A program made the position numbers and the translations under genes. From contig CAZNIO010000007.1 in the NCBI GenBank assembly GCA_964573135.1, positions 117 to 64,116 on the forward strand: a stretch of DNA of 64,000 bases, read 5' to 3'. The notes under the pieces were generated by a model. That model did not search any database and was not told the origin of the DNA. It saw only the letters and a program-made list of their open reading frames with translations. Each line of letters begins with the position of its first letter. Within the stretch, counting starts at the first letter, position 1. The stretch comes from an uncultured Gammaproteobacteria bacterium. Its GTDB lineage: Bacteria; Patescibacteriota; Patescibacteriia; UBA2196; GWA2-42-15. Shown here piece after piece: positions 1-47,852 of this stretch.

Positions 1-3000
1 ATTACCTCTCCTGCTGACGGCTCTTCCGGTGAATCGAAAAATGTTGTCCTCAGAATTACCATTGATCAGCCAGGTACAGTTAAATTTTATGATGACGGTC
101 AAGAATCAGCCAGCCTAATATTTAGTCAAACTGGCTCATTCTCATATACTTATTTAGACATGACTCGCACTACACATGTGTTCAAAGCCAGTATAACCAA
201 TAGTAATGGCACTGACCATGATTCTATTACCTATACCGTTCAGGAACACTCAGGCGAGGATCTAGCCATTTCGATTATTCAACCTCAAAATGGTGATTCC
301 GGCACAGGCAAGCGAGTAGCTATAAGATATAATATAAATAAAAATGGATCTATCTATTTTTATGAAGGCAATAATCTACTTGGCACTGACGCCAAAGGCT
401 CTTCTGGAAATTATTTCTATCGACTTCCCGAACTGCCAGCCGGTCAATACACTTTTAAGGTTAAGCTTGTAAACCTTACTGCTGGTACAGTCGAAGATTC
501 AGTCATCTATACTATTTTAGAAGAAAATGACCCCAATCCTGACCCTCCCACCATCTCTATCGACTCCCCAGCTTCTGGCATTTCAAGTACTAACAAAAAC
601 CCAAAGATATATTACACTATTTCACAACCAGGTAAGGTTAGATTTCATGATGGTGACGCTGGCGTGTACCAAACACAAAAAACTGCCGGTAGCCACATCT
701 ATTACTTCTCCAACCTTACTCCGGGTACTCACACCCTAAGGCTAGTTGTCAGTAATGACAATGGTACGTCTAACGATTCAATTACCTATATAGTTACTCA
801 GGAGGAAGAACCGCCAGTCATCACATCCAGTCAGGGGACTATTCTGGTTAAAAAAGATTCCTCTCTTTCTTCTTACGCACAAACATTAAGTCAACACAAA
901 AATTGGAATTTACTTGAGACAACATCTACTGATGCTGGTGCTATCAGAAATCAAATAATAAATCTATACAACCAACAACCATTTAAATTTTTATTAATTC
1001 TTGGTGATCATACTCAAATCCCCGTTTACGATCAAAGTCTATTACGTGAGTATGTTACTTCAACTGGCTTTGGCCATAATGGTAGCATCTTGGCCAAAGA
1101 CAAAAATGTGCTAGATGGCTTATACTACGGTAGTATTGATCAAGATATCGATATCGAACTCAGTGTTGGCCGTCTACCTTTTAATAATAGTTCTGATCTA
1201 GAACAATATTATTCAACTTTTCCTAACAGTAAATCAATATCAAAGATTAATGTAATTAGCCATGTAGCTGGGGGCATTCCTCATACTGGTTTTCTATCGC
1301 CACAGCTCAATCAATATCAAGTAACAAATTTTGAAGGTGTTAGTACCACTGATGTCTTTAATAGTAACCTGATTGCCAGTGATCTTCTTTATTCATATAG
1401 TCATGGCACATCCGCCTCATTAGATATTGGGCAAACATACACTCAAAACAACATTCCTGGTCTTACTAACCACCCGCTTGTTATTGGGGAAGGCAACATC
1501 GCCGGCAGTGAACTTGGTCTAGAGTTTGTTAAAAAGGGAGCCTTGGCCTATCTGGGATATTATATATCTCCCGAAATCACTGGCCTTGCCTTGCTTGACC
1601 AGCCGTCTAATAAGACCACTTTTGGTGAGACTATAAAACAAGTTAACAACTATTATACTCTCTACCAAACAATTTCTCCAAGTCCCAGATCTTCCTACTA
1701 CTATATTGGTGATCCATCACTTGGGGTTAATTTTATAACCACAAATCATACTGCCTTCTCAAGGCAGGGTGATGAGATGGAAGTTCGTGTTCCAGGTATG
1801 ACAAAGCATAGTTTTGTAGACGATAATGACAACCAAGTCGTTAATCTATATACCACCTATACCTATCAATTCCAGTCCACCCAATCAACTTATGATCTCT
1901 TAAGGAAGAATCCTCCTTATGAGACAAATAACCAAATATTAATTAAGTGTGATCCATCCGTTGAAACTGGTTTTCTGTTGCCATGTCAAGATATAGCAAG
2001 CACTTATTCAGACAGCCCATACCAACATGCGGTGGTCTTTAGTAAATCAGTGCTCTCAGATAGGGGTACTTATAGTAAATACATAATAAGGATTGACGAC
2101 GAATTTAATCCTCAAAATATATATCAAAAAATAAATGGTGAGTTAATTTTTCTTAATAACTATCTATCTGAAGTTAAAGAAATCGACGACGAATTTTATC
2201 TTATAATCTATGAGCCCAATCATATTCTTTTTGAGGACATCAACAGCGGTAAAAATTCGAATCCAAAAACTTTCGTAGTTTCGCAAGAAGAAATCAGCAC
2301 AAATGCACCATCTTTGACCATTGATGGCCCCGCTTCCGGTACCACCAGTATAAATCCAAATCCAAAAATTTACTATAATATATCCCAGCCAGGCAATGTT
2401 TCATTTTTTGATGGCGATGCCGGTGCAGAGCAGGCCCAGAAAAATGCTGGTAACCACACCTATTATTTCTCTAACCTTACCCCAGGTACTCATACCTTAA
2501 ATCTAACCGTTAATAATGATAACGGATCATCCCGTGACTCTATCCAATATATAGTTGGTCAAGCCAATGCTAATACCACACCCGATGATGAATCCGATAC
2601 ACCCGATGACCAAAACCAAGACGAGGACAATAACCAGGATAATAATCAAGAGCAAGATGAAGACATTGACGATGACACGCAAGACAATGAGGACAGCACT
2701 CCACCCCCAGCTCCTGGACCCGAAGTTTCCATCACTGCTCCTCAGAATGGTTATGCCAGCGAATCAACTAATATTAAATTACGCTACACCCTTAGTCAAT
2801 CAGGCTCTGTAATCTTCTGTAATAATAGTGCTTGTAGTTCGCCTGTTAGTATGCCCAGCGGAAACCGTGCTCATAAATTTAGTAACCTTAGTTTCGGTTC
2901 GCATGTTCTAAAGGTTATTATTTCTAATGCCAAGGGCCAAGCACAAGATTCAATTAACTATTCTGTTATAAACACACCAAAAATAGAGCTACCACCTTCA

Positions 3001-3798
3001 GTAATAATTACCTCTCCCAAAAACAGATCTTTAGGCAACGCCAGCAGTCTCGTTGTTAATTATGCTATTATTACCCCTGGCAATCTAGAATTTTTTAAAG
3101 ATAACACTCGCGTTGCACAAGAGAGGGCGATTAAATCAGGTTTTTTCTCATATACTTTTAATAATCTCGCTCCTGGGCTCCATACTTTAAAAATTAAAAT
3201 ATCGAATAGCGCTGGTAGTCAAGAAGCTTCAATTCTTCATACCGTTAAAACATCCGCCACCTCAAGTATTCCGCCAAGTACAACTTCTAATGATGATCTT
3301 TCTAAGAGATTATCAGGCCGATTCTTATTAGCCACTCAAGATAATGGTAAAATATATTATGTAAATCCTACTAACCTTAAAAAATATCAAATTACCCTTG
3401 GCAATATGCAAACACTTTTGGCTAGCTTAGCTACCGGCATTACTAATGCTAATATTAATAGAATACCTATTCATCCAGACTCTGTTTCAAACAACGTAGA
3501 CAGCGATGGAGATGGCTTTAATGATTACCAAGAGGTTGCTTATGGTTACAACCCAGACATTCCGTCTTTGCCCGGCAAGCGCGGTAACGATAAAGTTCGC
3601 CCTGATTTTAACTTTGCTAATGCCATGCGAGGTAAAATCTTGATGCAAATTGAAGATAGAGGTAGGCTTCATTATGTAGACATGACCGGTAAGCGCTGGG
3701 AAATTAAATGGCAAAACGCCTTGGATATTTTTAGAAAGTTAGCTCTTGGTATCACCAATGATAATCTATCAAAAATCACAGATATTCAGAGCAACTAA
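1..3798 (+). CDS. Giant secreted/surface protein, 5'-partial. The reading frame is open from nt 1 and the listed Met160 is internal. It carries tandem ~90-aa Ig-like repeats, an acidic D/E/N/Q-rich linker, a TSP3-like DxDxDG loop and two C-terminal ~55-aa conserved modules.
   Basis: Frame 1 has no stop from nt 1 to 3798. The upstream segment (ITIDQPGTVKFYDDG...SFSYTYL) is another copy of the internal ISQPGKVRFHDGDAG...YYFSNLTPGTHTL repeat. The C-terminal GRFLLATQDNGKIYYV...LGNMQTLLASLATGITNANINRIP and GKILMQIEDRGRLHYV...LALGITNDNLSKI modules are also present in the next gene. Confidence 0.8.
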   Translation: MTSPADGSSGESKNVVLRITIDQPGTVKFYDDGQESASLIFSQTGSFSYTYLDMTRTTHVFKASITNSNGTDHDSITYTVQEHSGEDLAISIIQPQNGDSGTGKRVAIRYNINKNGSIYFYEGNNLLGTDAKGSSGNYFYRLPELPAGQYTFKVKLVNLTAGTVEDSVIYTILEENDPNPDPPTISIDSPASGISSTNKNPKIYYTISQPGKVRFHDGDAGVYQTQKTAGSHIYYFSNLTPGTHTLRLVVSNDNGTSNDSITYIVTQEEEPPVITSSQGTILVKKDSSLSSYAQTLSQHKNWNLLETTSTDAGAIRNQIINLYNQQPFKFLLILGDHTQIPVYDQSLLREYVTSTGFGHNGSILAKDKNVLDGLYYGSIDQDIDIELSVGRLPFNNSSDLEQYYSTFPNSKSISKINVISHVAGGIPHTGFLSPQLNQYQVTNFEGVSTTDVFNSNLIASDLLYSYSHGTSASLDIGQTYTQNNIPGLTNHPLVIGEGNIAGSELGLEFVKKGALAYLGYYISPEITGLALLDQPSNKTTFGETIKQVNNYYTLYQTISPSPRSSYYYIGDPSLGVNFITTNHTAFSRQGDEMEVRVPGMTKHSFVDDNDNQVVNLYTTYTYQFQSTQSTYDLLRKNPPYETNNQILIKCDPSVETGFLLPCQDIASTYSDSPYQHAVVFSKSVLSDRGTYSKYIIRIDDEFNPQNIYQKINGELIFLNNYLSEVKEIDDEFYLIIYEPNHILFEDINSGKNSNPKTFVVSQEEISTNAPSLTIDGPASGTTSINPNPKIYYNISQPGNVSFFDGDAGAEQAQKNAGNHTYYFSNLTPGTHTLNLTVNNDNGSSRDSIQYIVGQANANTTPDDESDTPDDQNQDEDNNQDNNQEQDEDIDDDTQDNEDSTPPPAPGPEVSITAPQNGYASESTNIKLRYTLSQSGSVIFCNNSACSSPVSMPSGNRAHKFSNLSFGSHVLKVIISNAKGQAQDSINYSVINTPKIELPPSVIITSPKNRSLGNASSLVVNYAIITPGNLEFFKDNTRVAQERAIKSGFFSYTFNNLAPGLHTLKIKISNSAGSQEASILHTVKTSATSSIPPSTTSNDDLSKRLSGRFLLATQDNGKIYYVNPTNLKKYQITLGNMQTLLASLATGITNANINRIPIHPDSVSNNVDSDGDGFNDYQEVAYGYNPDIPSLPGKRGNDKVRPDFNFANAMRGKILMQIEDRGRLHYVDMTGKRWEIKWQNALDIFRKLALGITNDNLSKITDIQSN

Positions 3799-3804
3799 AG
3801 CCCA

Positions 3805-3832
3805 TTGACAATTTTTATATTTTCATTAAAAT
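3805..3832 (+). promoter_or_regulatory. Putative sigma70-like promoter: -35 TTGACA (3805-3810), 16-bp spacer, -10 TAAAAT (3827-3832), ~40 nt upstream of the 3873 start codon.
   Basis: The hexamers and spacing were read directly from the sequence. Confidence 0.35.
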
Positions 3833-3872
3833 TAAATAATTTATTAATTCTTATATAACTAAACAAAAATAT

Positions 3873-6800
3873 ATGCGAAATATCTATTTTTCCAGTAGAA
3901 AAGTCCTCATTTGTGGGGTAATTTTGGCTATGCTTAGCCAAATTTTTGCCTTCACTCCTTTGCCGGCTAAGGCCAACATCTTGGGTGATATAGATGATAA
4001 TGGTCAGATACAAACATATGATGCTGCTCTTATTACTCAATATGTGGCTAGTATCATTGATTTTACCGATGCCCAGAAGGTGGCAGCTGATGCCAATGGC
4101 GACGGTAAAATCAGTAGCTTAGATGCCCATGTCATCGGGGATTATGCCGTTGGCAACATTACCAGTCTGCCCGCTCATTATCTTCAATATACCCAAGACG
4201 ATTCAACGACCGATGACTATTTTGCATATTGTGATGCACCTACAGACTGTGTATCATCCACCAATAGTTGCTACAACTCAGATACCAATCCATGGCCAAA
4301 ATATATCTGTAAATCAGACGGTAGTCCAGGGGTTGGTAAATGGTATAGCTGTGCTGACTCATCTCATCTTGGAAAAGAGGTTATGGGATATACTTGTCAG
4401 GAGCAGCCAGACGGTAGCTACGCCTGGATGGTAGCTAGCTTATTAAAACCAGACTTAACTATAAAAGACTTTAGCTGGCGACCAGCAAGTCCGTTGGTTG
4501 GTGAAAGCGACCCATATCTTTATGTTGATTTTACCGTTACAAACAAAGGCAGTCAGCCAATATCACTCAATGGCACCACATATTCTCTCTATCGTAATAA
4601 TACCAGTGATCTCATTGCCGAGTTGTTTGCTGAGAAAAATCAACCAACACTTCAGCCAGGAGAAACATACACCTATCAAAATTTGACCACCACACAAAAC
4701 TCTGGCATTAAAAACATAGCAGGGACTTTTAACCTTATAATGAAGGCTGATTCAGAAAATATTATTGTTGAATCAAATGAAAATAATAACACTCTAACAA
4801 AAACACTTGTTGTTGGCGAGCAAGGGCAATTACCAGATTTATTACCAGATTTAATTGTTAAAAATATTAAATTTAATCAAAAATGGAGCATTTGGGATAA
4901 TGTTCTTACTGCAGAAGTATGTAACCAAGGCTTGGCCACAGTTTCGGGAAAGCAACTCTCAACAGAATTTAAATTAATGGACATTGTTAGGAATCACGGA
5001 ATGTCTCAGACACTTGATCCAGGAAGCTGTCATGAAGTTTTTATCGTCTTGTCTGGCTTTAATATATCAAATTTAAGTAAAGGGTATTATGACGTAACTG
5101 TTACTGCGGATACAGACAACATTACTTCAATATATGATAATCTTGTTGAAGAATCCAACGAAAATAATAACTCTACTAGCGCCAGACTATATTTTGATAT
5201 TCCAGATATTCACAAACCCGATCTTAAAATTGAGAATTTTAAATTTACTGATTTGAGAATTAATAAATCAGGTTGGGACGTCCAAATTTCATTTGATTTA
5301 GTTAATGCTGGTTCAGTTGCACCAAGTAGCGATTTTAAAATTATAATTGAAAATTTAACCGCCAATAAAGTTCTTAAAAATGAAAATTATGCCCATGGAT
5401 ATTTCATACCAGGTCATCGACAAAAAGTATACACTGTTGGTAATGTGGGTGATGGCTTTACGGCCGGTAGCAATACCATCAGAATTAAAATTGATTTAAA
5501 TAATACAGTTGATGAATCCAATGAATCAAATAATACTCTTTTAAAAACAATTAATCTTCCTGCCAGCTTCTATTATCTACAATATACCAGAGACGATGGT
5601 ACCACTGCTCCATATCATGCTTATTGTGGCCAGCCTACCGATTGTGTCTCCTCAAGTAATGATTGCTACGACTCAGGTACCCGGCCCTTCGCTAATAAAA
5701 GATATATTTGCCAATCAGATACTTCAAATAGTGTTGGCAAGTGGTACAGATGTGCTGACTCAACTCATGCTGGTAAAACAGTCATTGGCTATACCTGCCA
5801 AAAGATGTCTAATGGAGCTTATGGTTGGGAGAAGGGCACTAATAAACCCGATTTAGTTGTTAGGGAAATTAATTATAACGATGGTTATGTGGGCGCCAAG
5901 GTATGTAATGATGGTACAGCCAAAACAGAAAGTTATAGTTCCGCAGGCCTCTTTCTTGGCAACAACTATTTTATGGGAGACTTACTTATTTCCCCGCTTG
6001 ATCCAGGTAAATGTAGTGAGGAATCAGCCATGAGAGTTACTAATTATGGATATGATAATCAGACAGTGGAAGCCAAGGTGGTGGCAGATTATTATAATAA
6101 AGTTGATGAATCTAATGAAAACAATAATACTTTAACCAAAACAATTACTATTATAGACTCCACAAATAAACCAGACCTAGTAATTAATGATGTATATTTC
6201 ACGCCCTTTGATCCCGCCGCAGGTGAAGTATTCGATGGCCAAGTGCTCATTGAGATTGAAAATCTCGGCAAAGTCGCAGCTAAAAATTTCCCTGTGGTTG
6301 TAGTCTTATCAAGTAATTGGATATTGCTTGATTGGCACGATAATCATCAACGTAAAACCGTTGATTATATCGGCAGTCATGCTACTAAGGTAATTGCTTT
6401 TGATGTTAAAGATAACTTTGTTTTTCAAAATAAACCACTTGAACTTCGTGCTTGGGTGGATAGTAACGGTGTTCTCTATTCAGGTAATGATTTAGAGAAT
6501 TTAAAAAATGATGATTTATTTATTGATGAATCGAATGAGAATAATAACACTTTTCTTAAGAAGTTAACTCTGCCCAATGATCCGGGAAAGCAAATAACAC
6601 TTAATAATTCAACATATACTCTTAACCCATCAAGCCTTACTCAAGGTATGACTGACGGGGCCGGGAATGTTGATTTTAAAGCAAATATTATTCAAAAAGG
6701 AGAGGCCAGAATGTATGGTTTCAGCGCTTTCGGTTATGGGGAAGGATTTCCAACTTATGCTACTCTTGGCACCGCAAGCGGCGGAGCGCAACCTGGCAAT

Positions 6801-9098
6801 TATACAGTTAAGCGATATTTCAATGATGATGTATTATCGGCCGATGGTGAGCTCCCCAGATTATATTCTGGTTATTTACCCATCGCTATATTTCATGGAA
6901 ATGGCAGGGGAGACGATCCGAAATTAAGATTTGATATGAATCTTACCGTTAATCCGCCATCTCTCTTCGAAGAACCAAAGCTCACAGTTTCTGCCACTAA
7001 TCCTCTCTCTCAACAAGTTGTACCAGGCACTAGCGATGTTAATTTAGGAAACTTCGTCTTTGACGCAGTTAGCTCAAGTCAAGACATTCGAGTAACAAGA
7101 GTTGATTTTAATCAACTGGTCTCTCGAGCAGGTACCCTATATAATATATCCATGCTCAAATTATTCGATGGGGATACCGAGCTTAATTCAAGTAGCGACC
7201 CAGACCCAATGGGCAATGGTTATTGGGCTACCAGTACCTTTGCTTTTTCTTCACCACTGATTATCACAAAAGGTACCGTCAAAAATTTAACCCTTAGAGG
7301 CAATATATCTAGTACGGCTAAGGATGGAGACACCCATCAATTTATCATTAATACTAATAATAATATTACGGCCAATGATAATGATTCAGGTGATACAGTC
7401 AAAGCCAATGGAGCTTATCCTCTTAACGGAACCCAACTCATCGTTGGCGCAGGTAAATTATCCATCAGTAGAAGTGATACTCTAAAAGATTCTCTTCTCA
7501 ACGGTAATACCACTGGAGTTACTATTGGTAAATTTAAAGCCCAAGCCTCAGTTACTGATATAAATATTGAGAAGTTGTATCTTGATTTTAGCCCATATCA
7601 TGGTGGTGGCACAGATGAGTTAACCGGCGTTTATCTTTATGATGGTGCCACTCAAATCGCTGAAAGCACCATTACTTCCTCAAATGCTCAAACCCTGGTC
7701 TTCAATATGGGCCATTCCCCACTTACCGTTCCAGCTGATACTGCCAAAGAATTAACCATCAAGGTTGATACATCCATGATCGATAAAAGTGGTGTAGCCA
7801 CAACTGGTACTCCGTTTGAAGGCTTCACGCCAAGCATTAAGGGTAGTTCAATTGTTGCCAAGGAGACTTCTGGCAGAGCTATTCAAGTAGAAAATAATAC
7901 CATAACTTTCCCTAACTATATTTTAGTCAAGTCTCAACCAACTATTACTAAAAGTAGTGCTTATGATGACGGCATAACCAGTAATGGCACCTATGATCTG
8001 ACCGACGTTACTGTGTCTGCCGATTCAAAAGGCCCCGTTGGTCTTTATAAAATGACTTTTGACATACATACCACCAATGTTTCATTAAGTGACTTTGGTA
8101 TTTATGAGGGCAATCTCCTAGTGGCCAACGAGGCAGATGGCGCTACTGACGGTATTAATATAACAGTTGTTGATGCCAACCATAGTATAGTTGAAGTTTA
8201 CTTCAACTCTGGCGATAGCCTGGATGGCAGAGCGAGGACAATACCTGCCGGCACATCTAAAGTTTATACCTTAAAAGCCAGTGTTCTGGGTTATCAATCC
8301 AATGTGGCAAATGGAACTGAAGCCCGTATATTAAGTGATGACAACTTTGCTACCACAACCCATTCATTAAATGCTTCAGAAGTTGACGCTAGCAGTTATG
8401 ATAATTTTATCTGGTCAGACTTATCTTACGGCAACACATCAACTACTGCCACTACAACCAAACAATGGCTCAATAGTTATTTAGTTAGAGGTTTATCTAA
8501 GGCATCTAGTGGTGGTGGCGGTGGAGGAGGTACTCCAGTACCAATCCCAACACCGACGCCGGATATTCCACTTCCAACCCCAGACCCTACACCGCCAACC
8601 AGTATCGCCAAGCGTCTTGCTGGACGCCTCCTATTGGCCGTTGAAAACAAAGGACGCATTCACTATGTTTATCCAATCGACCTTAATCGATATGAAGTTA
8701 CCTTTGGTAATGTTATGAAACTTTTTGAAGATTTATCTTTAGGTATTTCCAATGATAATCTTTACCAAATCCTTGTCAATCCAAGTTCAGAAAGCGCCGA
8801 TAGCGATCGAGACGGCGATGGCTTCAGTGATAAGGAAGAAGCAACTAATGGTTATAACCCAGACGTTGCATCAGATCCAACCAATCGCGGTAATGACAAA
8901 ATAAAGGCCAACACCGTATTATCAAATAGACTTATCGGCAGGCTGCTAATCCAAGTAGAAGGCCATGGTCGTATTTGGTATGTTGACCAGTCTGCCAAGC
9001 GCTGGGAAGTTACCTTTGGTAACGTTATGAATCTGTTTACTTCCTTAGCCCTTGGTATTACCAATGATGATCTTGATAAAATTCCAGCTGGTAACTAA
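3873..9098 (+). CDS. Giant secreted multi-domain protein (1741 aa). It has a signal peptide, an N-terminal dockerin-like double Ca-binding repeat, at least 6 CARDB-like repeats ending in a D/E-ESNExNNT motif, two ~85-aa Cys-rich modules, a beta-rich central region, a Gly/Pro-Thr linker, two C-terminal ~55-aa modules and a TSP3-like loop.
   Basis: N-terminus MRNIYFSSRKVLICGVILAMLSQIFAFTPLPAKA. DIDDNGQIQTYDAAL...DANGDGKISSLDAHV resembles dockerin. VDESNENNNTL/ESNESNNTL motifs recur 6 times, as in Pfam CARDB. YxAYC..PTDCVSS.N.CY.S....W.CADS.H.GK...GYTCQ occurs twice. The C-terminal KRLAGRLLLAVENKGRIHYV... and NRLIGRLLIQVEGHGRIWYV... modules match the previous gene. Confidence 0.85.
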   Translation: MRNIYFSSRKVLICGVILAMLSQIFAFTPLPAKANILGDIDDNGQIQTYDAALITQYVASIIDFTDAQKVAADANGDGKISSLDAHVIGDYAVGNITSLPAHYLQYTQDDSTTDDYFAYCDAPTDCVSSTNSCYNSDTNPWPKYICKSDGSPGVGKWYSCADSSHLGKEVMGYTCQEQPDGSYAWMVASLLKPDLTIKDFSWRPASPLVGESDPYLYVDFTVTNKGSQPISLNGTTYSLYRNNTSDLIAELFAEKNQPTLQPGETYTYQNLTTTQNSGIKNIAGTFNLIMKADSENIIVESNENNNTLTKTLVVGEQGQLPDLLPDLIVKNIKFNQKWSIWDNVLTAEVCNQGLATVSGKQLSTEFKLMDIVRNHGMSQTLDPGSCHEVFIVLSGFNISNLSKGYYDVTVTADTDNITSIYDNLVEESNENNNSTSARLYFDIPDIHKPDLKIENFKFTDLRINKSGWDVQISFDLVNAGSVAPSSDFKIIIENLTANKVLKNENYAHGYFIPGHRQKVYTVGNVGDGFTAGSNTIRIKIDLNNTVDESNESNNTLLKTINLPASFYYLQYTRDDGTTAPYHAYCGQPTDCVSSSNDCYDSGTRPFANKRYICQSDTSNSVGKWYRCADSTHAGKTVIGYTCQKMSNGAYGWEKGTNKPDLVVREINYNDGYVGAKVCNDGTAKTESYSSAGLFLGNNYFMGDLLISPLDPGKCSEESAMRVTNYGYDNQTVEAKVVADYYNKVDESNENNNTLTKTITIIDSTNKPDLVINDVYFTPFDPAAGEVFDGQVLIEIENLGKVAAKNFPVVVVLSSNWILLDWHDNHQRKTVDYIGSHATKVIAFDVKDNFVFQNKPLELRAWVDSNGVLYSGNDLENLKNDDLFIDESNENNNTFLKKLTLPNDPGKQITLNNSTYTLNPSSLTQGMTDGAGNVDFKANIIQKGEARMYGFSAFGYGEGFPTYATLGTASGGAQPGNYTVKRYFNDDVLSADGELPRLYSGYLPIAIFHGNGRGDDPKLRFDMNLTVNPPSLFEEPKLTVSATNPLSQQVVPGTSDVNLGNFVFDAVSSSQDIRVTRVDFNQLVSRAGTLYNISMLKLFDGDTELNSSSDPDPMGNGYWATSTFAFSSPLIITKGTVKNLTLRGNISSTAKDGDTHQFIINTNNNITANDNDSGDTVKANGAYPLNGTQLIVGAGKLSISRSDTLKDSLLNGNTTGVTIGKFKAQASVTDINIEKLYLDFSPYHGGGTDELTGVYLYDGATQIAESTITSSNAQTLVFNMGHSPLTVPADTAKELTIKVDTSMIDKSGVATTGTPFEGFTPSIKGSSIVAKETSGRAIQVENNTITFPNYILVKSQPTITKSSAYDDGITSNGTYDLTDVTVSADSKGPVGLYKMTFDIHTTNVSLSDFGIYEGNLLVANEADGATDGINITVVDANHSIVEVYFNSGDSLDGRARTIPAGTSKVYTLKASVLGYQSNVANGTEARILSDDNFATTTHSLNASEVDASSYDNFIWSDLSYGNTSTTATTTKQWLNSYLVRGLSKASSGGGGGGGTPVPIPTPTPDIPLPTPDPTPPTSIAKRLAGRLLLAVENKGRIHYVYPIDLNRYEVTFGNVMKLFEDLSLGISNDNLYQILVNPSSESADSDRDGDGFSDKEEATNGYNPDVASDPTNRGNDKIKANTVLSNRLIGRLLIQVEGHGRIWYVDQSAKRWEVTFGNVMNLFTSLALGITNDDLDKIPAGN

Positions 9099-9200: not shown

Positions 9201-10061
9201 TCAAGTTTGTATTCTGGACTTATGGGTTTCTTTTTTTAGTAAAATAGTTGAACCAATTATTAGTACGCCTCCCAAGGCCATATTCCACGTCAGCAGTTCT
9301 CTGAAAAAAATCAGTGCAAAAATCAAAGCACTCACCACTTCTAAATATGCTAGAAGTGATGCGGTTGATGCTTTTATTTGTTGCATGCCTTTAAAAAATA
9401 GCCCAAAACCTGCTAGCCCGATTAGTGGTGCATATATAGCTACTGTTACTCCGACTTGGGTGATTGATGGCAGGGGATTCCAAAATAGAAATGGCAGGAA
9501 TATAAAGGGTGCTACTAGGTTTTGATAAAAAACCGTTTCTTGCCATGAGTGGGTTTTAAGCCCCTTTTTAAACATAATCAGTGAAAGTGCAAACAAGATA
9601 GCCGACAAAAGCATTGAACTCATGCCTAAAAAATCCATATTGCTAAAGTTAAATTCCTGATTAATGTATATTAATATAATTCCTGAGAAAGCTATCAATA
9701 GCAAAAGTACATTTCTTTTTGATATTTTTTCTCCTATTATTAGCCATCCAAATACGGCAGCAAAAATTGGCCAAGTATAATCCATTATTACCGCATTGCC
9801 TATTGATGTATATGTAAATGCCACGAAATAGAAAAACATCCTTATGGCGTTCAGTGCTGAAGCTCCCAGCATCAACTTGGTATTTCCCTTAAATATTTTT
9901 ATTTTTTTAATTAAGAAATAAATTAAAAGAATTAAAAAAGGCACCACCGTCCTAAAAAAGGTCATCGTCGTTGGTGCCAGACTCAAATATTTAATAAATA
10001 CCCCCGCTGATCCCCAAATTATGGCTGCCAGAGCTACTTCTATGTATGGGTTAAACCTCAT
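9201..10061 (-). CDS. EamA/DMT-family permease (10 TM), paralog 1 of 3.
   Basis: Two EamA-like halves with hydrophobic helices throughout; similar in length and pattern to the ORFs at 13932-14774 and 16584-17450. Confidence 0.7.
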   Translation of the reverse strand: MRFNPYIEVALAAIIWGSAGVFIKYLSLAPTTMTFFRTVVPFLILLIYFLIKKIKIFKGNTKLMLGASALNAIRMFFYFVAFTYTSIGNAVIMDYTWPIFAAVFGWLIIGEKISKRNVLLLLIAFSGIILIYINQEFNFSNMDFLGMSSMLLSAILFALSLIMFKKGLKTHSWQETVFYQNLVAPFIFLPFLFWNPLPSITQVGVTVAIYAPLIGLAGFGLFFKGMQQIKASTASLLAYLEVVSALIFALIFFRELLTWNMALGGVLIIGSTILLKKETHKSRIQT

Positions 10062-10064
10062 ATA

Positions 10065-10370
10065 TTATTTTACAAATTCTACTTTTAAATCATATCCAAA
10101 AACGCTGGCTATTTTGCGTAAAGTCCCAGTGGTAAAATTTTGACGGCCTGCTTCCATGCGAGCCACATTGCTTTGTTTTGTGCCAATTTTATGAGCTAAT
10201 TCAGATTGCGACATTCTGTTTTCTTTTCTTAATTCTAATATTTTGTAAGCAATTTCAAGCTGTTTGCCATACTCGTCATAATATTTTTTTATTTTAGGAT
10301 CCTTTAATTGTTCTTCAAGGTAATCTTGGAAATTGAGTATTTTTTTATCTGGTTGTTTTTTTCTAGCCAT
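10065..10370 (-). CDS. HTH XRE-family antitoxin (HigA-like).
   Basis: The HTH motif MSQSELAHKIGTKQSNVARMEAGRQN. It overlaps the upstream toxin gene by 8 bp. Confidence 0.75.
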   Translation of the reverse strand: MARKKQPDKKILNFQDYLEEQLKDPKIKKYYDEYGKQLEIAYKILELRKENRMSQSELAHKIGTKQSNVARMEAGRQNFTTGTLRKIASVFGYDLKVEFVK

Positions 10371-10746
10371 ATATTTGTGCGTTGTTTAATGTGTCTATAT
10401 AATTTTCAGTGGCTTTCTTTATTTCTGCAAGGGGAGTTTTATTAGTTTTCTTTAGAAAAGCATGCAGTAGAATAACATTTTTTCCTACAAGAGTAAAATA
10501 GAATATACTATGATGGTTGCGACTAAAATCAATTCTTAATTCCCTAATTTTACCCTTAATATGCTTAGCATAAGGTTCATCTAAATACCCTTTATGTATT
10601 TGCAAAAACTCGATATATTTTAATACTTTTGCTTTATTTTTACTATCAAGCTTCTCAATATATTCTAAAACAGGAATCTTCTTTGTAACGGAACTCTGAT
10701 AAAATTTTACTTTATAATTTGAGCTCCCGTTATTATTATATATCAT
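10363..10746 (-). CDS. RelE/HigB-like toxin of the Gp49 (DUF891) family.
   Basis: The FYFTLVGKNVILLHAFLKKTNKTPLAEIKKA C-terminal signature shared with the 19242-19559 ORF. The toxin-first, XRE-antitoxin-second order is typical of HigBA. Confidence 0.65.
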   Translation of the reverse strand: MIYNNNGSSNYKVKFYQSSVTKKIPVLEYIEKLDSKNKAKVLKYIEFLQIHKGYLDEPYAKHIKGKIRELRIDFSRNHHSIFYFTLVGKNVILLHAFLKKTNKTPLAEIKKATENYIDTLNNAQIYG

Positions 10747-25726: not shown

Positions 25727-26917
25727 ATGAGCCTATTACCCAGTAAAAAAAGTTATCTTGGTATTGATTTGGGGACTTCCGCTATTAAAATAGTGGAACT
25801 ACAGAATAAAAATGGTCGGGCTGTACTACTTACCTATGGTTATGTTGAGCAACCAACAGACATTGTCCGCTCATCATCCTCTGAGATGGAAGAAAGAATT
25901 GTCGAGATCGTTAAAAGCATCTGCCAAAAAAGTCGTACCACCTCAAAAAAAGTAATTGCTGCCTTACCCAGCTTTTCGGTTTTTACGTCAATTATCAGCC
26001 TGCCTGCCATGAAAAAGAAAGACCTCCATCAGGCTATCAAATGGGAAGCCAAAAAATTTATACCCCTACCCATTGAAGATATGGTACTTGATTGGAAAAT
26101 TGTACCGCCAGAGGGGAGTCAACATACGGCTCAAACTCCCAAAGCAGATCACAAATCCGAGAAAAAGGACGAGTCCAAAAAAGAGGGGTCAGACAAGGAA
26201 GAAGATTCATCCTCTAATCCACTTTCTAAACTTTTTAAAAAAGACCATTCAGATAAGGAAACCAAATTAAAAAAGGAAGATCAAAATCTTAAAATACTTT
26301 TAACCGCTGCTCCTAAAACCTTAGTTGAAAGATATCTGCGCATTTTTAAATCAGCTGGGTTGGAGATTGTGAGCTTGGAAACTGAGTCCTTTGCCCTTGA
26401 GCGCTCTTTGCAAGGCGGTGACCCCGCTCCAGTTATGATCATCGATATCGGTGCTGTCTCCTCAGATATTGTTGTTATCAATAACGGTATTCCCATTCTT
26501 AACAGAAGTATTGATGTCGGTGGTGTAACTATCACCAAAGCTATCATGTCTAGCTTAAATGTTGATATTACTCGAGCAGAGCAGTTTAAGCGTGACATTG
26601 GTTTTTCTGATTTAGGTGAAGATAATTTGCCAAATGTCATTAAAACATCCATCAGCCCAATTATTAATGAAATCAAATATTGCTTAGACATCTATTTATC
26701 TCAAGCTGGTACCAATAATATTGAAAAAATTATTCTAACCGGTGGTAGCTCATGGTTGCCCGATCTAGCTAAGCATTTAAGTAAAATTTTAGACGTTAAG
26801 GTTATTATAGGAGACCCATGGGATAGAGTAGTTTATCCCCTTGAATTAAAACCCGTTTTAAAAGAGCTAGGACCGCGCTTCTCTGTAGCCGTTGGTCTAG
26901 CTATGCGGGAAATGTAA
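25727..26917 (+). CDS. pilM: Type IV pilus assembly protein PilM (actin-like ATPase fold) with a ~55-aa K/E/D/S-rich low-complexity insertion.
   Basis: YLGIDLGTSAIKIVELQ phosphate-1 motif; first gene of a pilMNO order; insertion KADHKSEKKDESKKEGSDKEEDSSS. Confidence 0.85.
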   Translation: MSLLPSKKSYLGIDLGTSAIKIVELQNKNGRAVLLTYGYVEQPTDIVRSSSSEMEERIVEIVKSICQKSRTTSKKVIAALPSFSVFTSIISLPAMKKKDLHQAIKWEAKKFIPLPIEDMVLDWKIVPPEGSQHTAQTPKADHKSEKKDESKKEGSDKEEDSSSNPLSKLFKKDHSDKETKLKKEDQNLKILLTAAPKTLVERYLRIFKSAGLEIVSLETESFALERSLQGGDPAPVMIIDIGAVSSDIVVINNGIPILNRSIDVGGVTITKAIMSSLNVDITRAEQFKRDIGFSDLGEDNLPNVIKTSISPIINEIKYCLDIYLSQAGTNNIEKIILTGGSSWLPDLAKHLSKILDVKVIIGDPWDRVVYPLELKPVLKELGPRFSVAVGLAMREM

Positions 26918-26918
26918 T

Positions 26919-28028
26919 ATGTTCGATAATATAGACAAAAAAGCCAAAGATATTGAGGAAGAAAGTGGAATTAATCTTCTGCCCAGTGATATGCGACCCA
27001 AAAAGGAGAAGGTTAGACACGAGCACCTGCCCAGCAAAGATGCTGCTGATTTTCATATTCCTGAAAAAAAAATAAAGCCGCTCACACCACACATAAAACC
27101 TCAGCCCAAAAAAGAAAAAAAACCTAAAGTTAAAAAACCTGGTTTTTGGAGTAAGTTTTTAGCCAAGCGTAAGCGCAAGAAAGCCGAAAAGAAATTTAAA
27201 AAGATAATGGCCCAAAAGAAAATTCAAGCAATCAACAAGAAGAGAAAAAAGAAGAAACCAGCCGTTGTTCCAGGTAATATTGCCCCGCCCCAACCTAAGC
27301 CCCCTGCCGCTCCTCATTTTCAGCACAAGCTGTTAGATCCCCCAGTTAAGCAGGATTTTGAAAAACCCATTATTTCCAAACCAGCTGATGACTATAGTCA
27401 GATAAAATTAAGTCATGCCAAGCCTCTGCCTCAGGAAGATGATGAGCTGGATGTTAATCTACTGCCCCCAGAAAAACAGCTTCCTTCAGGCAAAAAAATG
27501 GCTACCCGCTACGCGCTAGCCGCTCTAATCGCTGTAGCTATAGTCGCCTTGCCATATATTTTTTTCCAGGCCAAAAAAGCAGGCCTTATTAAACAGGCCA
27601 ATGATTTAAAAATTCAGATAGAATCTGTTGAAAAAGAAATGCTGAAAACGAGTGACCTCATTAAAAAATTTGGGCCATTAGTTGATCGCCTCGATACCCT
27701 CGGCGTTTTACTCGACAACCACATCTATTGGAGTCGTCTCTTCCCCATTTTAGAAAAACACACAGCTCAAGGAGTATACTTCACCGATCTTTCAATCAGT
27801 CCCCAAACACAAATTATTTTAACTGGCAAAGCGCGCAATATACGTTCATTGGCCGAAGAACTTGTTGTTCTCAAAAATGGTGATGCCTTTACCGACGTCA
27901 CTTTGTCCTCTCTGCGCCTGCCAGAAATCGGAAAAGAGGAAGAGGGTAAAATTCCTACCGTAGATTTTACTATTTCTTTTACACTTGACAGCAAAATTAT
28001 TAATTTGTTACAGCTAGAAGAGGAATAA
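26919..28028 (+). CDS. pilN: PilN-like inner-membrane pilus assembly protein with a ~190-aa Lys/Pro-rich N-terminal extension.
   Basis: Single TM helix (YALAALIAVAIVALPYIFF) followed by a coiled-coil periplasmic domain; sits between pilM and pilO; basic KKPK/KRKKK repeats at the N-terminus. Confidence 0.65.
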   Translation: MFDNIDKKAKDIEEESGINLLPSDMRPKKEKVRHEHLPSKDAADFHIPEKKIKPLTPHIKPQPKKEKKPKVKKPGFWSKFLAKRKRKKAEKKFKKIMAQKKIQAINKKRKKKKPAVVPGNIAPPQPKPPAAPHFQHKLLDPPVKQDFEKPIISKPADDYSQIKLSHAKPLPQEDDELDVNLLPPEKQLPSGKKMATRYALAALIAVAIVALPYIFFQAKKAGLIKQANDLKIQIESVEKEMLKTSDLIKKFGPLVDRLDTLGVLLDNHIYWSRLFPILEKHTAQGVYFTDLSISPQTQIILTGKARNIRSLAEELVVLKNGDAFTDVTLSSLRLPEIGKEEEGKIPTVDFTISFTLDSKIINLLQLEEE

Positions 28029-28029
28029 T

Positions 28030-28647
28030 ATGGATCATCAGTCACACAACAAGAATAATAATGATAAGAAGATAGTTTGGTATATTAAGTATTTTAAACC
28101 CCTTATCATCATCATCCCCTTACTCATCTTGGTGGCTGGCTATTTTGTTTTTTTACAGGACGTTTACGGAGAGTATAATCAATCTAAAAGCTATATAGGA
28201 GAAAATCAAAATCAGCTCCAAGCTAAAAAGGCCCAGTTACTTAGTCTTAACAAAGTTCATCAAGGCTTTAAGGATATTAGCCTGGCTGACCGCGCTCGAG
28301 TAGCCGATATTCTACCGGAAACAATTGACGAGTCCAGCCTTTACGTCAATATTGAAAAACTTATAACCGACCCAGGCGTGACTGGTCAACTGGAAGATGT
28401 TTTCGTCAGCCCATATAAAGAAGAGAATACCAGAAAGAAAAAGGATAAATCAGCTCTTGATCTCTTGTCAGCCAAACTGAATAAAGCCAACGTTAGTTTG
28501 TCCGTTTCCAGTATAAACTATATTAATCTTAAAGTTCTTTTTGAACTTATTGAAAAGAATATTAGACTTTTTGATGTTAAGTCATTTTCATATACTGCCA
28601 AAGACGGCGAGTTAGAAATTATGATGATGGCCTATTTTTTAGAATAA
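28030..28647 (+). CDS. pilO: PilO-like pilus assembly protein (TM helix plus coiled coil).
   Basis: TM helix LIIIIPLLILVAGYFVFL followed by a helical periplasmic region; position in the operon. Confidence 0.6.
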   Translation: MDHQSHNKNNNDKKIVWYIKYFKPLIIIIPLLILVAGYFVFLQDVYGEYNQSKSYIGENQNQLQAKKAQLLSLNKVHQGFKDISLADRARVADILPETIDESSLYVNIEKLITDPGVTGQLEDVFVSPYKEENTRKKKDKSALDLLSAKLNKANVSLSVSSINYINLKVLFELIEKNIRLFDVKSFSYTAKDGELEIMMMAYFLE

Positions 28648-28660
28648 AATCAAAACCCTT

Positions 28661-28954
28661 ATGAAAGGCATGTCCAAAAAGAAAATAATAATTTATGTGT
28701 CACTGTTTGCTGTTATTATTGCAGCTAATATTTACTATTACATATCAACCACCAATTCAGGTGAAAAGCAAGATACTACTTCAAGCGTAGCCCTAGAACT
28801 TGCAGTATCTCAAATGTCTGATCAGGGGGAAGCACAAAAAAGGCAGTCTGTTTTAGAGCACGACCTTTTCCGCGAGCTTGAAAAGCTGGGTGAATGGCCG
28901 GTTGTTCCCAACCAGGTTGGTCGCGCTAATCCTTTTCTTCCCTTCTTTGAATAA
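28661..28954 (+). CDS. Small membrane-anchored protein inside the pilus operon (unknown, possibly PilP-like).
   Basis: TM helix IIIYVSLFAVIIAANIYYYI; located between pilO and pilB. Confidence 0.4.
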   Translation: MKGMSKKKIIIYVSLFAVIIAANIYYYISTTNSGEKQDTTSSVALELAVSQMSDQGEAQKRQSVLEHDLFRELEKLGEWPVVPNQVGRANPFLPFFE

Positions 28955-28962
28955 TATATTAT

Positions 28963-30696
28963 ATGAAAAAGCCTGAAGAAGCCAAAGAGCAACTTTTACA
29001 CTATTTTGTAAAAGCAAATAAAGTTGACAATAAGCTTGCCAAAGAACTCGGCCAAGAGAAACAACTGGTCGATCTCGAGGCCAAGCTTATCACCCAAGCT
29101 AAGATATCAGAAGAAGAAATCGCCCGAGCCAAGGCGTCTCTTTTTAATTTGTCCTTTCTTGCTCTAAGCGACCAGAAAATTCCCATGGAGGTTTTAGACA
29201 TTTTGCCAAGAGAGCTAGCTGAAAATTATGGCATGGTTGCCTTTGGTAAACAAGATAATATTATCAGTATTGGCTTAGTCGACCCCACCAACCTAAAAGC
29301 GCGTGAAGCCGCTGATTTCGTAGCTCGTGGTAAAAATTTAAAAACTGAATATCATCTTATTACTAAAACTGCCCTGCACCGCGCTTTGCAGCAATATGGC
29401 AGTTTGAAACTGGAAGTTGGTGAGGCCCTTGAAATGGCCAAAGACAAATTTGGAGAAGGCAGACAGGTTATTGATGAAAAAATGGAAAAGGTCATCAAGT
29501 CAGCCCCTATCTCAAAAATGGTTGCCGTCATTTTAAAACACGCCGTTGAATCACGTGCTTCAGATGTCCACATTGAGCCAACCACAGAAGAAACACATGT
29601 GCGCTATCGCGTTGACGGCAGACTTAAATTATCTTTAGTTTTACCCAAATACGTACACGCCGCTATTATTTCGCGTATCAAAGTCATGTCTAACCTGCGT
29701 ATTGATGAAACCCGCATTCCCCAAGATGGCAGGATCAGGCTCAACATTGGTGGCAGTAACATTGATTTTCGTGTTTCCACTCTCCCTCTATATAGCCAAG
29801 AGAAAGTGGTTATGAGAATTTTAGATACTTCTGGTGGTGTCTCCACCTGGGAAGAGCTTGGTTTCGAAAGCCACAATTTAGAGATAATGAAAAAGAATAT
29901 TAAAAAACCTCATGGCCTATTTCTAGTTACCGGCCCCACTGGTAGCGGTAAATCCACTACCCTGTATGCCGCCTTGCAAATCTTAAATAAAGAAGAGGTT
30001 AATATTGTCACCCTCGAAGACCCAGTCGAGTACTACTTAAAAGGGGTTAATCAGTCTCAGGTCAGACCAGCAGTCAAATTCACCTTTGCTTCAGGTTTAC
30101 GCTCTATCCTGCGTCAAGATCCAGATATTATCATGGTCGGCGAGATCAGGGACGCTGAAACTGCTGAATTGGCCATTCATGCCGGTTTGACAGGTCATAT
30201 TGTTCTCTCTACCTTGCATACCAATGATGCTTTTGGCGCCATTCCGCGTTTAATTGATATGAAGATTGAACCATTTTTAATCTCATCTACCTTAAATATT
30301 GTAGTTGCTCAAAGATTGGTCAGAAGTATTTGCCCTAAATGTAAGGAAGAATCAGAGCTACCGCCCACCACGCGCCAGGAAGTTGAAGAAATTTTTACAA
30401 GCATCCCGTCAAAAAATTTGCCACAAGGTATTACTAAGGAAAGCTTGAGCAAAGTATATCGCGGTAAAGGATGTCCTCATTGTAATCAGACCGGCTACAA
30501 GGGCCGATCAGCTATTGCCGAAGTTCTTGAAATTAATGATGAGATTAAGGATGTTGTTAATTCTGGTTTTAAGTTAAGTACTATCAAAGAAATGTTTATA
30601 AAACAAGGCATGCTTAGCTTAAAACAAAACGGCTTAGTCAAAGTGCTTGAGGGTAGAACTACTATTGAAGAAATCCTAACAGTTACCAAGGATTAG
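28963..30696 (+). CDS. pilB: Type IV pilus assembly ATPase PilB/GspE (extension ATPase).
   Basis: Walker A GPTGSGKST, Asp box VTLEDPVEY, Walker B DIIMVGEIRD, His box LSTLHTN, tetracysteine CPKC...CPHC, and an N-terminal GspE_N domain. Confidence 0.93.
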   Translation: MKKPEEAKEQLLHYFVKANKVDNKLAKELGQEKQLVDLEAKLITQAKISEEEIARAKASLFNLSFLALSDQKIPMEVLDILPRELAENYGMVAFGKQDNIISIGLVDPTNLKAREAADFVARGKNLKTEYHLITKTALHRALQQYGSLKLEVGEALEMAKDKFGEGRQVIDEKMEKVIKSAPISKMVAVILKHAVESRASDVHIEPTTEETHVRYRVDGRLKLSLVLPKYVHAAIISRIKVMSNLRIDETRIPQDGRIRLNIGGSNIDFRVSTLPLYSQEKVVMRILDTSGGVSTWEELGFESHNLEIMKKNIKKPHGLFLVTGPTGSGKSTTLYAALQILNKEEVNIVTLEDPVEYYLKGVNQSQVRPAVKFTFASGLRSILRQDPDIIMVGEIRDAETAELAIHAGLTGHIVLSTLHTNDAFGAIPRLIDMKIEPFLISSTLNIVVAQRLVRSICPKCKEESELPPTTRQEVEEIFTSIPSKNLPQGITKESLSKVYRGKGCPHCNQTGYKGRSAIAEVLEINDEIKDVVNSGFKLSTIKEMFIKQGMLSLKQNGLVKVLEGRTTIEEILTVTKD

Positions 30697-30733
30697 TATG
30701 GGAGGATTTAGTAATTAATATTTTTTAAATTAT

Positions 30734-31804
30734 ATGTCACAAGCCAGTCTAATATTCAATAGAATACTCAACTCCAGCATTACTCAAGGTGCATCATATA
30801 TCCACCTCGAATCGGGTAACAAGCCGACCCTGCGCATTGCCGGTCGCCTCAAAGGCCTTGAAGATGAATCCGTTGTTGATGGAGACTTTATTACAGAAAT
30901 TGTTAAAATTATTCTCTCGGCCGACCAGCAAGAAGAACTTGAAAAAAATAAATCAATTATTGTTGTCCACAATTTTGAAGGCGGTATGCGCTTCAAAATT
31001 AATATTTTCTACCAAAAAAGTAGCCTGGCTATGATATTTAAGTATCTTCCAGCTGAAATTAAAAAATTAGTTGATCTTGGTTTGACTGACCAGTTTATAA
31101 AACTTCTTAATAAAAAGAAGGGTCTCATTTTAGTTACCGGACAGCACGGTTCTGGCAAAGCCTCTACCTCCGCTTCAATGTTAAACCACATTAACACCAA
31201 TGCTTCACGTTATATCATAACTATTGAAAATCCAATTCAATATATTATTCCTCCATCCAAAAGTATTATTGATCAAAGAGAGGTTGGTAAGGATACCCTT
31301 AGCTTTGAGAAAGCCATCAGTTTTGCCGAAGAAAGTGATGCTGACATTGTCTTTTTATCAGAAGTCAATAATGCTAAGTCTTTAGAAAAAGCCATTGATC
31401 TTATCGACAGTGGTCGTCTAGTAATCGCTGTTGTTGAAGCCCCTTCTGCCGCCGATTCCATTGAACATCTTATAAATTTAGTGGCTGATACTGAAAGATC
31501 TAAGCATCGTCAAATCATCTCGAATCTTCTACTTGGTACGCTTGTTCAAAGGCTTATCCCTAGAAGAGGCGGAGGACAAATCGTTGTCCTCGAACTTTTA
31601 ATTGCCAATCCTGCCGTCAGCTCTTTAATTAAAGAAGGTAAGCACGCTCAATTAAGCAGTATTATTCAAACTTCGCGTGACGAGGGCATGCGCACCCTTG
31701 ATCAGTCTCTTATTGAGCTGGTACACACCGGAGAAGTGGATGCCAAAGACGCTCTGCCAGTGGCCACTGATAAAATAGGGTTTCAGGCCGCCGTTCAAGA
31801 ATAG
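30734..31804 (+). CDS. PilT/PilU-like ATPase paralog with degenerate catalytic motifs (probable pseudo-ATPase).
   Basis: Collinear with PilT, but Walker A is GQHGSGKAS (Ala after the Lys), the Asp box EDPIE is ENPIQ, Walker B DIILVGEMRD is DIVFLSEVNN, and the His box TLHT is VVEA. Confidence 0.7.
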   Translation: MSQASLIFNRILNSSITQGASYIHLESGNKPTLRIAGRLKGLEDESVVDGDFITEIVKIILSADQQEELEKNKSIIVVHNFEGGMRFKINIFYQKSSLAMIFKYLPAEIKKLVDLGLTDQFIKLLNKKKGLILVTGQHGSGKASTSASMLNHINTNASRYIITIENPIQYIIPPSKSIIDQREVGKDTLSFEKAISFAEESDADIVFLSEVNNAKSLEKAIDLIDSGRLVIAVVEAPSAADSIEHLINLVADTERSKHRQIISNLLLGTLVQRLIPRRGGGQIVVLELLIANPAVSSLIKEGKHAQLSSIIQTSRDEGMRTLDQSLIELVHTGEVDAKDALPVATDKIGFQAAVQE

Positions 31805-31807
31805 TTT

Positions 31808-47847: not shown

Positions 47848-47852
47848 ATTTT

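Follow-up and report, generated by a model that had tools for sequence, protein, structure and literature searches.

Patescibacteria, also known as the candidate phyla radiation (CPR), account for a substantial part of bacterial diversity, have for the most part not been cultivated and seem to live attached to other cells; to our knowledge, next to nothing has been established about how they hold their surface proteins. The S-layer proteins of Bacillota are retained non-covalently on a wall polymer by tandem, terminal copies of SLH repeats, while M23 endopeptidases of the lysostaphin type carry an SH3b wall-targeting domain at their C-terminus. The CWB2 motifs, which occur in tandem as non-identical and non-interchangeable units at a terminus of many C. 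difficile wall proteins, bind the polymer PSII (PMC4973711). The present analysis concerns a 64-kb stretch of DNA from a Candidatus Kuenenbacteria genome (positions 117 to 64,116 of contig CAZNIO010000007.1, hereafter the window) in which two adjacent genes, designated gene 1 and gene 2, encode giant secreted proteins that end in the same pair of related modules (A and B) flanking a loop. This module pair is a widespread, undescribed building block of extracellular Patescibacteria proteins, and neither domain libraries nor the searchable literature yielded a description of the module.

Genes 1 and 2 share the C-terminal order of a ~58-residue module A, a 47-residue loop and a module B, all encoded on the forward strand. 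In gene 1, module A (g1A) occupies window positions 3301-3474 (residues 1048-1105), the loop 3475-3615 and module B (g1B) 3616-3789 (residues 1153-1210), and the corresponding elements of gene 2 are located at 8607-8780 (g2A, residues 1579-1636), 8781-8921 and 8922-9095 (g2B, residues 1684-1741), the latter abutting the stop codon. An independent hidden Markov model (HMM) of the family, built from members outside the window and with the closest relatives (P0001-P0005) also left out, recognised g1A, g1B, g2A and g2B with domain E values of 4.3e-21, 9.8e-24, 2.3e-25 and 1.6e-28, respectively, and returned no match beyond these four copies when compared to the six-frame translation of the 64-kb window. 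Any two of the four copies are 32-58% identical, and their likeness is far beyond chance. As the tandem regions of the two genes share only 46% amino acid and 60% nucleotide identity, they represent old paralogs, and a recent duplication or gene conversion between genes 1 and 2 is ruled out by the same values. The preliminary description of this locus, made from the sequence alone, had proposed that both giant open reading frames (ORFs) end in module A, a DxDxDG loop and module B; this architecture is borne out, as is the tandem nature of the module, the length of which is about 58 residues instead of the ~55 first given.

The loop had in addition been likened to a thrombospondin type-3 (TSP3) repeat, a likeness that holds for the calcium-binding consensus and is borderline by score in comparison to the Pfam family TSP3_bac (PF18884; cut-off 25 bits), against which the gene 1 loop scores 25.2 bits as part of the C-terminal fragment and 22.4 bits within the full protein, with 23.1 and 21.6 bits, respectively, for the gene 2 loop. 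Both loops contain one repeat with a complete DxDxDGxxDxxE consensus, i.e., the putative Ca-binding cores DSDGDGFNDYQE (3499-3534, gene 1) and DRDGDGFSDKEE (8805-8840, gene 2). Furthermore, PF18884 is matched at E <= 5 by 36 of 43 family members (best E = 1.2e-5), and loop positions D68, D70, D72, G73 and E79 are invariant across these 43 sequences. Judged by its sequence, the inter-module loop is a bacterial TSP3-type repeat of borderline score that would be expected to bind Ca2+.

A word-indexed search for relatives of the module recovered five close relatives only. An exhaustive HMMER search with a nine-sequence single-module profile yielded, at the threshold applied (E <= 1e-3), 3,436 cluster representatives (clustering at 50% identity), of which 2,884 reach E <= 1e-10. 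All of these family proteins are named 'hypothetical protein' at source, and all named organisms belong to the Patescibacteria group, Kuenenbacteria or the Parcubacteria group, i.e., to Patescibacteria. One exact 8-residue word was found at 17 loci in species-representative genomes (Kuenenbacteria, Komeilibacteria and unclassified metagenome-assembled genomes (MAGs) of Patescibacteria); this word is present in just 33 of 244 family proteins, and the scan therefore undercounts approximately 7-fold. A sister subfamily with the consensus GRILLQVExxGEAWYVNPxxxKRYYLGRPxDAFxxMRxLGLGI accounts for at least 465 confirmed metagenome loci. Genomes carry several paralogs, often adjacent to each other, as is the case for the two genes of the window and for pairs at three further loci (L012, L010 and L063), and one MAG (locus-tag prefix KKA66) encodes three module proteins. 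The module is a clear candidate to found a Pfam family of its own. Four loci (L001, L008, L016 and L017) in records titled 'uncultured Gammaproteobacteria' also encode the module, which is otherwise confined to Patescibacteria; in view of their GC content of 29-33%, the label is doubtful and probably a placeholder or an error.

The pair is a fixed unit in almost all of these proteins. Exactly two module copies were found in 151 of the 153 top matches (four copies in the other two), and for the sister subfamily the number is again two in 65 of the 67 complete ORFs, single-copy members being a minority. Modules A and B are distinct subtypes: the nearest neighbour of a module A is the A of another protein in 130 of 136 cases and that of a module B is another B in 128 of 136, indicating that the pair is inherited as one unit. 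Its position is terminal in most proteins, with 63 N-terminal, 81 C-terminal and nine internal pairs among the 153 matches, and 48, 11 and eight, respectively, among the 67 complete sister-subfamily ORFs. N-terminal pairs begin a median of eight residues past the hydrophobic core, C-terminal pairs are located at the extreme end, and an N-terminal hydrophobic segment is present in 118 of the 147 matches that start with Met. The linker between the modules is bimodal in length, measuring 5-16 or 39-51 residues in the Kuenenbacteria-type subfamily and 3-15 or 52-65 residues in the sister subfamily. All long linkers contain a DxDxD[GQN] motif (one in each of 76/76 and in 19/19, respectively), and those of the sister subfamily hold two tandem TSP3 repeats, as read from the listed sequences; the linker therefore holds zero, one or two repeats, and both length classes are present in Kuenenbacteria. 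Residues W19, Y20 and N35 of the module are near-invariant and, together with T32, form a set of conserved aromatic and Asn/Thr positions. In some members a Pro/Thr/Gly-rich spacer separates the pair from the remainder of the protein, including gene 2, where the Gly/Pro/Thr-rich sequence SSGGGGGGGTPVPIPTPTPDIPLPTPDPTPPTS (8505-8603) lies directly upstream of the pair; a Ser/Thr/Pro-rich spacer, KTSATSSIPPSTTSNDDL (3247-3300), can be read at the equivalent place in gene 1.

These data revise the preliminary description on several points. The module had been regarded as specific to the two paralogs and their lineage, whereas its 3,436 clusters extend over Kuenenbacteria, Komeilibacteria, the Parcubacteria group and other Patescibacteria, in addition to the sister-subfamily loci. 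It is not inherently C-terminal either, as the pair directly follows the signal peptide in about 40% of the top matches and 70% of the sister-subfamily ORFs, and the TSP3 loop, which had appeared to be a fixed element, is optional. The N-terminal pairs also rule out a C-terminal sorting signal of the LPXTG/sortase, PEP-CTERM or T9SS CTD kind.

The pair is fused to a broad range of extracytoplasmic passengers, including proteases (trypsin-like, S8, S41, C25 and C1), repeat or adhesin-like domains (CARDB, several immunoglobulin (Ig)-like families, fn3, PA14 and LVIVD) and a set of other domains (beta-helix, CAP/YkwD, SH3, amicyanin-like cupredoxin, transglutaminase-like, NAGPA and the peptidoglycan endopeptidase M23), while some family proteins consist of a signal peptide and the pair, with nothing else. 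A further anchor is rarely present: among 225 family proteins no transmembrane (TM)-like segment was detected past the N-terminal region, and none at the C-terminus, with one LPXTG-like and two lipobox-like motifs. None of these three features was found in genes 1 and 2, the gene 2 product being free of TM-like segments and LPXTG motifs throughout the part outside its signal peptide.

A structural model of the pair was obtained with AlphaFold2 for residues 1578-1741 of gene 2 using a 43-sequence alignment, a single-sequence model with a predicted local distance difference test (pLDDT) of 45 having been discarded. The model has a pLDDT of 93.8 and a predicted template modelling score (pTM) of 0.86, and the loop, at 92-97, is as confident as the modules, which indicates that A-loop-B is modelled as one compact body and not as two beads on a string. 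Each module is predicted to form three strands and then a helix, and to close with a short strand and a short helix. Foldseek searches of the model against the PDB and BFVD returned no significant match; chemokine-like matches to the beta3+alpha arrangement were rejected as insignificant, and no solved structure of a known wall or surface anchoring domain was matched by the fold. Searches of Pfam, NCBIfam and PHROGs at permissive thresholds, using the window copies together with sets of 43, 63 and 66 relatives, left the module uncovered except for weak WW matches. The SLH, LysM, PG_binding_1, SH3b, CWB2, SPOR and choline-binding families gave no Pfam match to the window copies at E <= 10, and the same families are absent among the matches listed (25 of 47 families) for the 43 members at E <= 5. 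Since neither the domain libraries nor Foldseek returned a match, the module does not map confidently to any known anchoring domain, in keeping with what had been supposed from its sequence.

That the pair serves in surface anchoring or docking is still the interpretation with the greatest plausibility. Our preferred, though tentative, interpretation, which we consider to fall somewhat short of probable, is that A-loop-B acts as a non-covalent, Ca-stabilised and pseudo-dimeric envelope tether of Sec-secreted Patescibacteria proteins. Such retention is suggested because the modules are extracytoplasmic, are terminally located, form an obligate and non-identical pair, accompany promiscuous passengers in proteins devoid of any other anchor, and are present as several paralogs per genome. 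Non-covalent surface-retention modules share this very set of features (confined to secreted proteins, terminal, tandem, promiscuous and multi-paralog), and the pair would thus work like such modules without being a member of a described family. Further arguments in favour of a tether are the mildly basic charge of the modules within acidic proteins, the Pro/Thr/Gly-rich spacers of some members, the confident joint model of A, loop and B, and the precedent of CWB2. What the data establish is the existence of the family, its architecture and range and the absence of relatives among described domains; binding to the envelope, binding of and dependence on Ca2+ and the nature of the ligand are inferred. 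Following Sec export and cleavage of the signal peptide (at the AKA|N site in gene 2), the two ~58-residue modules would pack together into a compact pseudo-dimer, which in about half of the family would be rigidified by the binding of Ca2+ to one or two TSP3 repeats. The pair would then attach to some conserved constituent of the envelope of the producing cell, either peptidoglycan or an associated wall polymer, and thereby keep the fused passenger at the surface, be it an adhesin-like array of Ig or CARDB domains, a protease, a CAP domain, a cupredoxin or an M23 enzyme. In the case of genes 1 and 2, the C-terminal pair would grip the envelope, with the dockerin, CARDB and Ig arrays extending outward.

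Several observations weigh against a wall tether. The module has no homology or fold tie to any proven wall-binding domain, and its passengers are not enriched for peptidoglycan enzymes, since M23 was seen fused to the module just twice, i.e., in one of the 63 proteins of a metagenome census and in the protein P0242. The modules are mildly basic (mean isoelectric point (pI) 8.4 for A and 7.9 for B) in comparison to the acidic whole proteins (5.9), yet this charge is modest and g2B is itself acidic (pI 6.5), while the enrichment of the spacers in Pro, Thr, Ser and Gly is weak overall (fraction 0.31 versus a background of 0.26). Furthermore, if the N-terminal segment served as an uncleaved membrane anchor, an extra tether would be needless, and a C-terminal pair would be positioned at the distal tip, which would favour adhesion or docking.

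The first alternative to be considered is that the pair binds another surface protein, in the manner of cohesin and dockerin or of a WW domain and its peptide, rather than a wall polymer. We regard this as rather unlikely; candidate partners would be an Ig-like S-layer lattice protein, a pilus or the Pro-rich linkers of other surface proteins. The arguments from position, promiscuity and absence of other anchors fit docking as well as they fit wall binding, Pro-rich spacers are common in module proteins, and a partner may be available in the p6 S-layers made of Ig-like-domain proteins that Patescibacteria are reported to have (10.1101/2024.05.28.596244). In addition, the module contains a WW-like beta-hairpin: in a sequence search of the PDB the WW domains of Itch and NEDD4 were the best matches (E = 0.028; weak only, with single sequence and profile), Pfam WW (PF00397) weakly matched six of 43 members (best E = 0.0096, below threshold) and none of the window copies, and hhalign gave a probability of 58% over 17 columns, in which both signature Trp residues and the Pro were unmatched. 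The likeness resides in a three-stranded antiparallel meander, whose second strand reads G-R-x-aromatic-aromatic-V-[DN]. However, it is limited to one hairpin of approximately 17 aligned columns and stays below the Pfam thresholds, the module is devoid of the Trp...Trp-x-x-Pro signature, and, unlike WW domains, it possesses an additional helix, strand and helix and is extracellular and bacterial. As the features that define membership were sought and are absent, the module is a member neither of the WW family nor of a known anchoring family. Also counting against docking, no conserved partner gene was noticed beside the module genes, the neighbourhoods of which were not analysed systematically.

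It is improbable that the pair instead mediates adhesion of these presumed episymbionts to a host or partner cell by recognising a glycan or protein on its surface. The pair is indeed carried by adhesin-like proteins of giant size that contain dockerin, CARDB and Ig arrays, a C-terminal pair would be exposed at the distal tip if the N-terminal segment remained in the membrane, and the conserved W19, Y20, N35 and T32 would suit sugar binding. Nevertheless, the same pair is found on extracytoplasmic enzymes of a housekeeping type (cupredoxin, CAP, proteases and M23) and, in small proteins, alone with a signal peptide; in most members it adjoins the signal peptide and would thus be membrane-proximal, and its strong sequence conservation extends over many Patescibacteria lineages that would be expected to differ in their hosts. 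A role without binding, in which the pair would assist folding, secretion or stability (for instance as an intramolecular chaperone or as a spacer made rigid by Ca), would agree with the compact, very confidently predicted unit, its putative Ca-binding staples and the lack of resemblance to ligand-binding families in the Foldseek PDB and Pfam searches, yet is likewise improbable, given that such an element would not be expected to occur at either terminus interchangeably, to exist in a stand-alone secreted form or to retain near-invariant W19, Y20 and N35.

Returning to the envelope tether, a bolder form of this proposal, which is conceivable though doubtful, holds that A-(TSP3)n-B is the main Patescibacteria-specific system for surface display, employing a fold with no solved relative to recognise a CPR-specific envelope polymer or S-layer in a calcium-dependent manner. 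If this were true, the presence of the pair would mark out the set of surface proteins that these episymbionts display, among them the giant adhesin-like proteins by which host cells are presumably contacted.

Beyond the module pair, the two giant genes differ in composition. Gene 1 (160-3798 as an ORF, forward strand, in a frame that runs from 1 to 3798) encodes a giant secreted protein of 1212 residues when read from the ATG at position 160, which represents a minimum, as there are at least 1265 codons in frame. The frame continues without a stop up to position 1 of the window, and the 53 codons within positions 1-159 read as a further Ig-like repeat of the kind found elsewhere in the gene, so gene 1 is 5'-truncated at the window edge and the ATG at 160 is internal. 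Its product comprises Ig-like repeats (Big_3_5, Big_7 and PKD-like), an unassigned centre, an acidic low-complexity stretch and the C-terminal module pair. The centre (802-2259, ~486 residues) has no Pfam match and no PDB sequence match; motifs tentatively likened to those of C25 peptidases or gingipains were noticed by eye (LLILGDHTQIP, VGRLP and SHG), with no catalytic Cys evident. The strongly acidic stretch (2578-2721), rich in Asp, Glu, Asn and Gln and with PPPAPGP at its end, is located between blocks of Ig-like repeats.

Gene 2 (3873-9098, forward strand) encodes a giant secreted protein of 1741 residues, in which a signal peptide is followed by a dockerin, Cys-rich repeats, CARDB arrays, an unassigned beta-rich region, the spacer and the module pair. 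The predicted signal peptide (3873-3974) ends in a cleavage motif of the AXA type, placing a type I dockerin (3981-4136, residues 37-88) at the mature N-terminus; with E = 1.3e-9 and 38.6 bits against a gathering cut-off of 22.9, this domain belongs to Pfam PF00404. Family member P0039 (1663 residues) likewise has a similar signal peptide followed by a sequence that appears dockerin-like by eye, DGDFMFGDVDGNG. Two copies of a ~85-residue Cys-rich segment with conserved cysteines (4179-4430 and 5574-5831; pattern YLQYT.DD.TT..Y.AYC..PTDCVSS.N.CY.S...) each directly precede a CARDB array, and Pfam reported no family for them. No exact match to the gene 2 product is on record. Four independent public contigs that carry the neighbouring EamA gene of the window (L018-L021) all end within gene 2, which suggests that assemblies are prone to break inside this giant gene, through strain variation or internal repeats.

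A small number of module proteins show links to peptidoglycan hydrolases or viral sequences. P0242 is an M23 endopeptidase with a single C-terminal module, the enzymatic part of which matches phage endopeptidase and endolysin families. It is encoded within a 20-kb run of same-strand ORFs of up to 1221 residues (L023, 1-20129; module gene at 9473-10129), in which almost no Pfam or PHROGs match was obtained besides P0242 and no phage hallmark gene or holin was recognised; this run may represent a CPR prophage or phage. Two proteins with YkuD domains (P0241 and P0244) were considered as evidence of wall association and set aside, as the module is absent from them and only the TSP3 repeat is present. 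Secreted proteins with the module that are not lysins are encoded on three IMG/VR contigs (L024, 4866-5942; L025, 484-1116; L026, 4896-5528), in each case with a single copy immediately behind an N-terminal hydrophobic segment. The module precedes a poly-Pro spacer and a stretch bearing trypsin-like motifs (GSGF and GNSGG, by eye) in L024, and an unknown domain in L025 and L026.

The remainder of the window, which has a GC content of ~37%, encodes PolA, two UvrA proteins, UvrB, UvrC, GroEL, a PEP synthase/PPDK and a type IV pilus cluster. The GroEL sequence has an exact counterpart (100% identity) among recorded proteins, and its best named relatives are from Candidatus Kuenenbacteria (82-88% identity), followed by other Patescibacteria. 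Between EamA and polA, two small overlapping ORFs of 101 and 127 residues (10065-10746, reverse strand) are, by synteny and identical lengths, the counterparts of L018 genes annotated as Gp49 (HigB-like toxin) and HTH_3 (antitoxin), and they probably constitute a toxin-antitoxin pair. The pilus cluster (25727-33013; PilM, PilN-like, a PilB-type ATPase, a PilT-like ATPase and PilC) is followed, up to about position 37103, by six ORFs of 156-274 residues that may encode pilins. The two UvrA paralogs (37810-40629, forward strand, and 43167-45734, reverse strand) are located near uvrB (45805-47910) and uvrC (41962-43170), and the second paralog has no match to the UvrA DNA-binding domain.

The module pair provides a concrete entry point into surface-protein display by CPR bacteria. 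If its tethering role were confirmed, this conserved and easily recognised pair, carried by thousands of secreted proteins, would supply a sequence signature with which to predict the displayed surface proteome from metagenomes, a pointer to the envelope ligand and a handle with which to label or capture cells, for example by means of fluorescent module fusions.

In comparison to described systems, the loop resembles TSP3 repeats (PF18884) in its complete consensus and in scores at or near the Pfam cut-off. Any assignment to this family, however, concerns the loop alone and not the modules, and one or two repeats are placed between the halves of the pseudo-dimer in lieu of a long array, while half of the module family is missing the repeat. 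The module of P0242 follows M23 at the position where lysostaphin carries its SH3b domain; in contrast to the latter, it is not an SH3b domain and is present as a single copy, and fusion to M23 is rare in the family. It is with CWB2 and SLH that the pair shares its design logic, i.e., tandem, non-identical copies at either terminus of many secreted proteins of one genome. There is no relation in sequence or fold, however, and where CWB2 and SLH of the Bacillota employ three copies, the Patescibacteria pair employs two, each of them a small beta3-alpha unit, with a putatively Ca-binding TSP3 insert between the copies.

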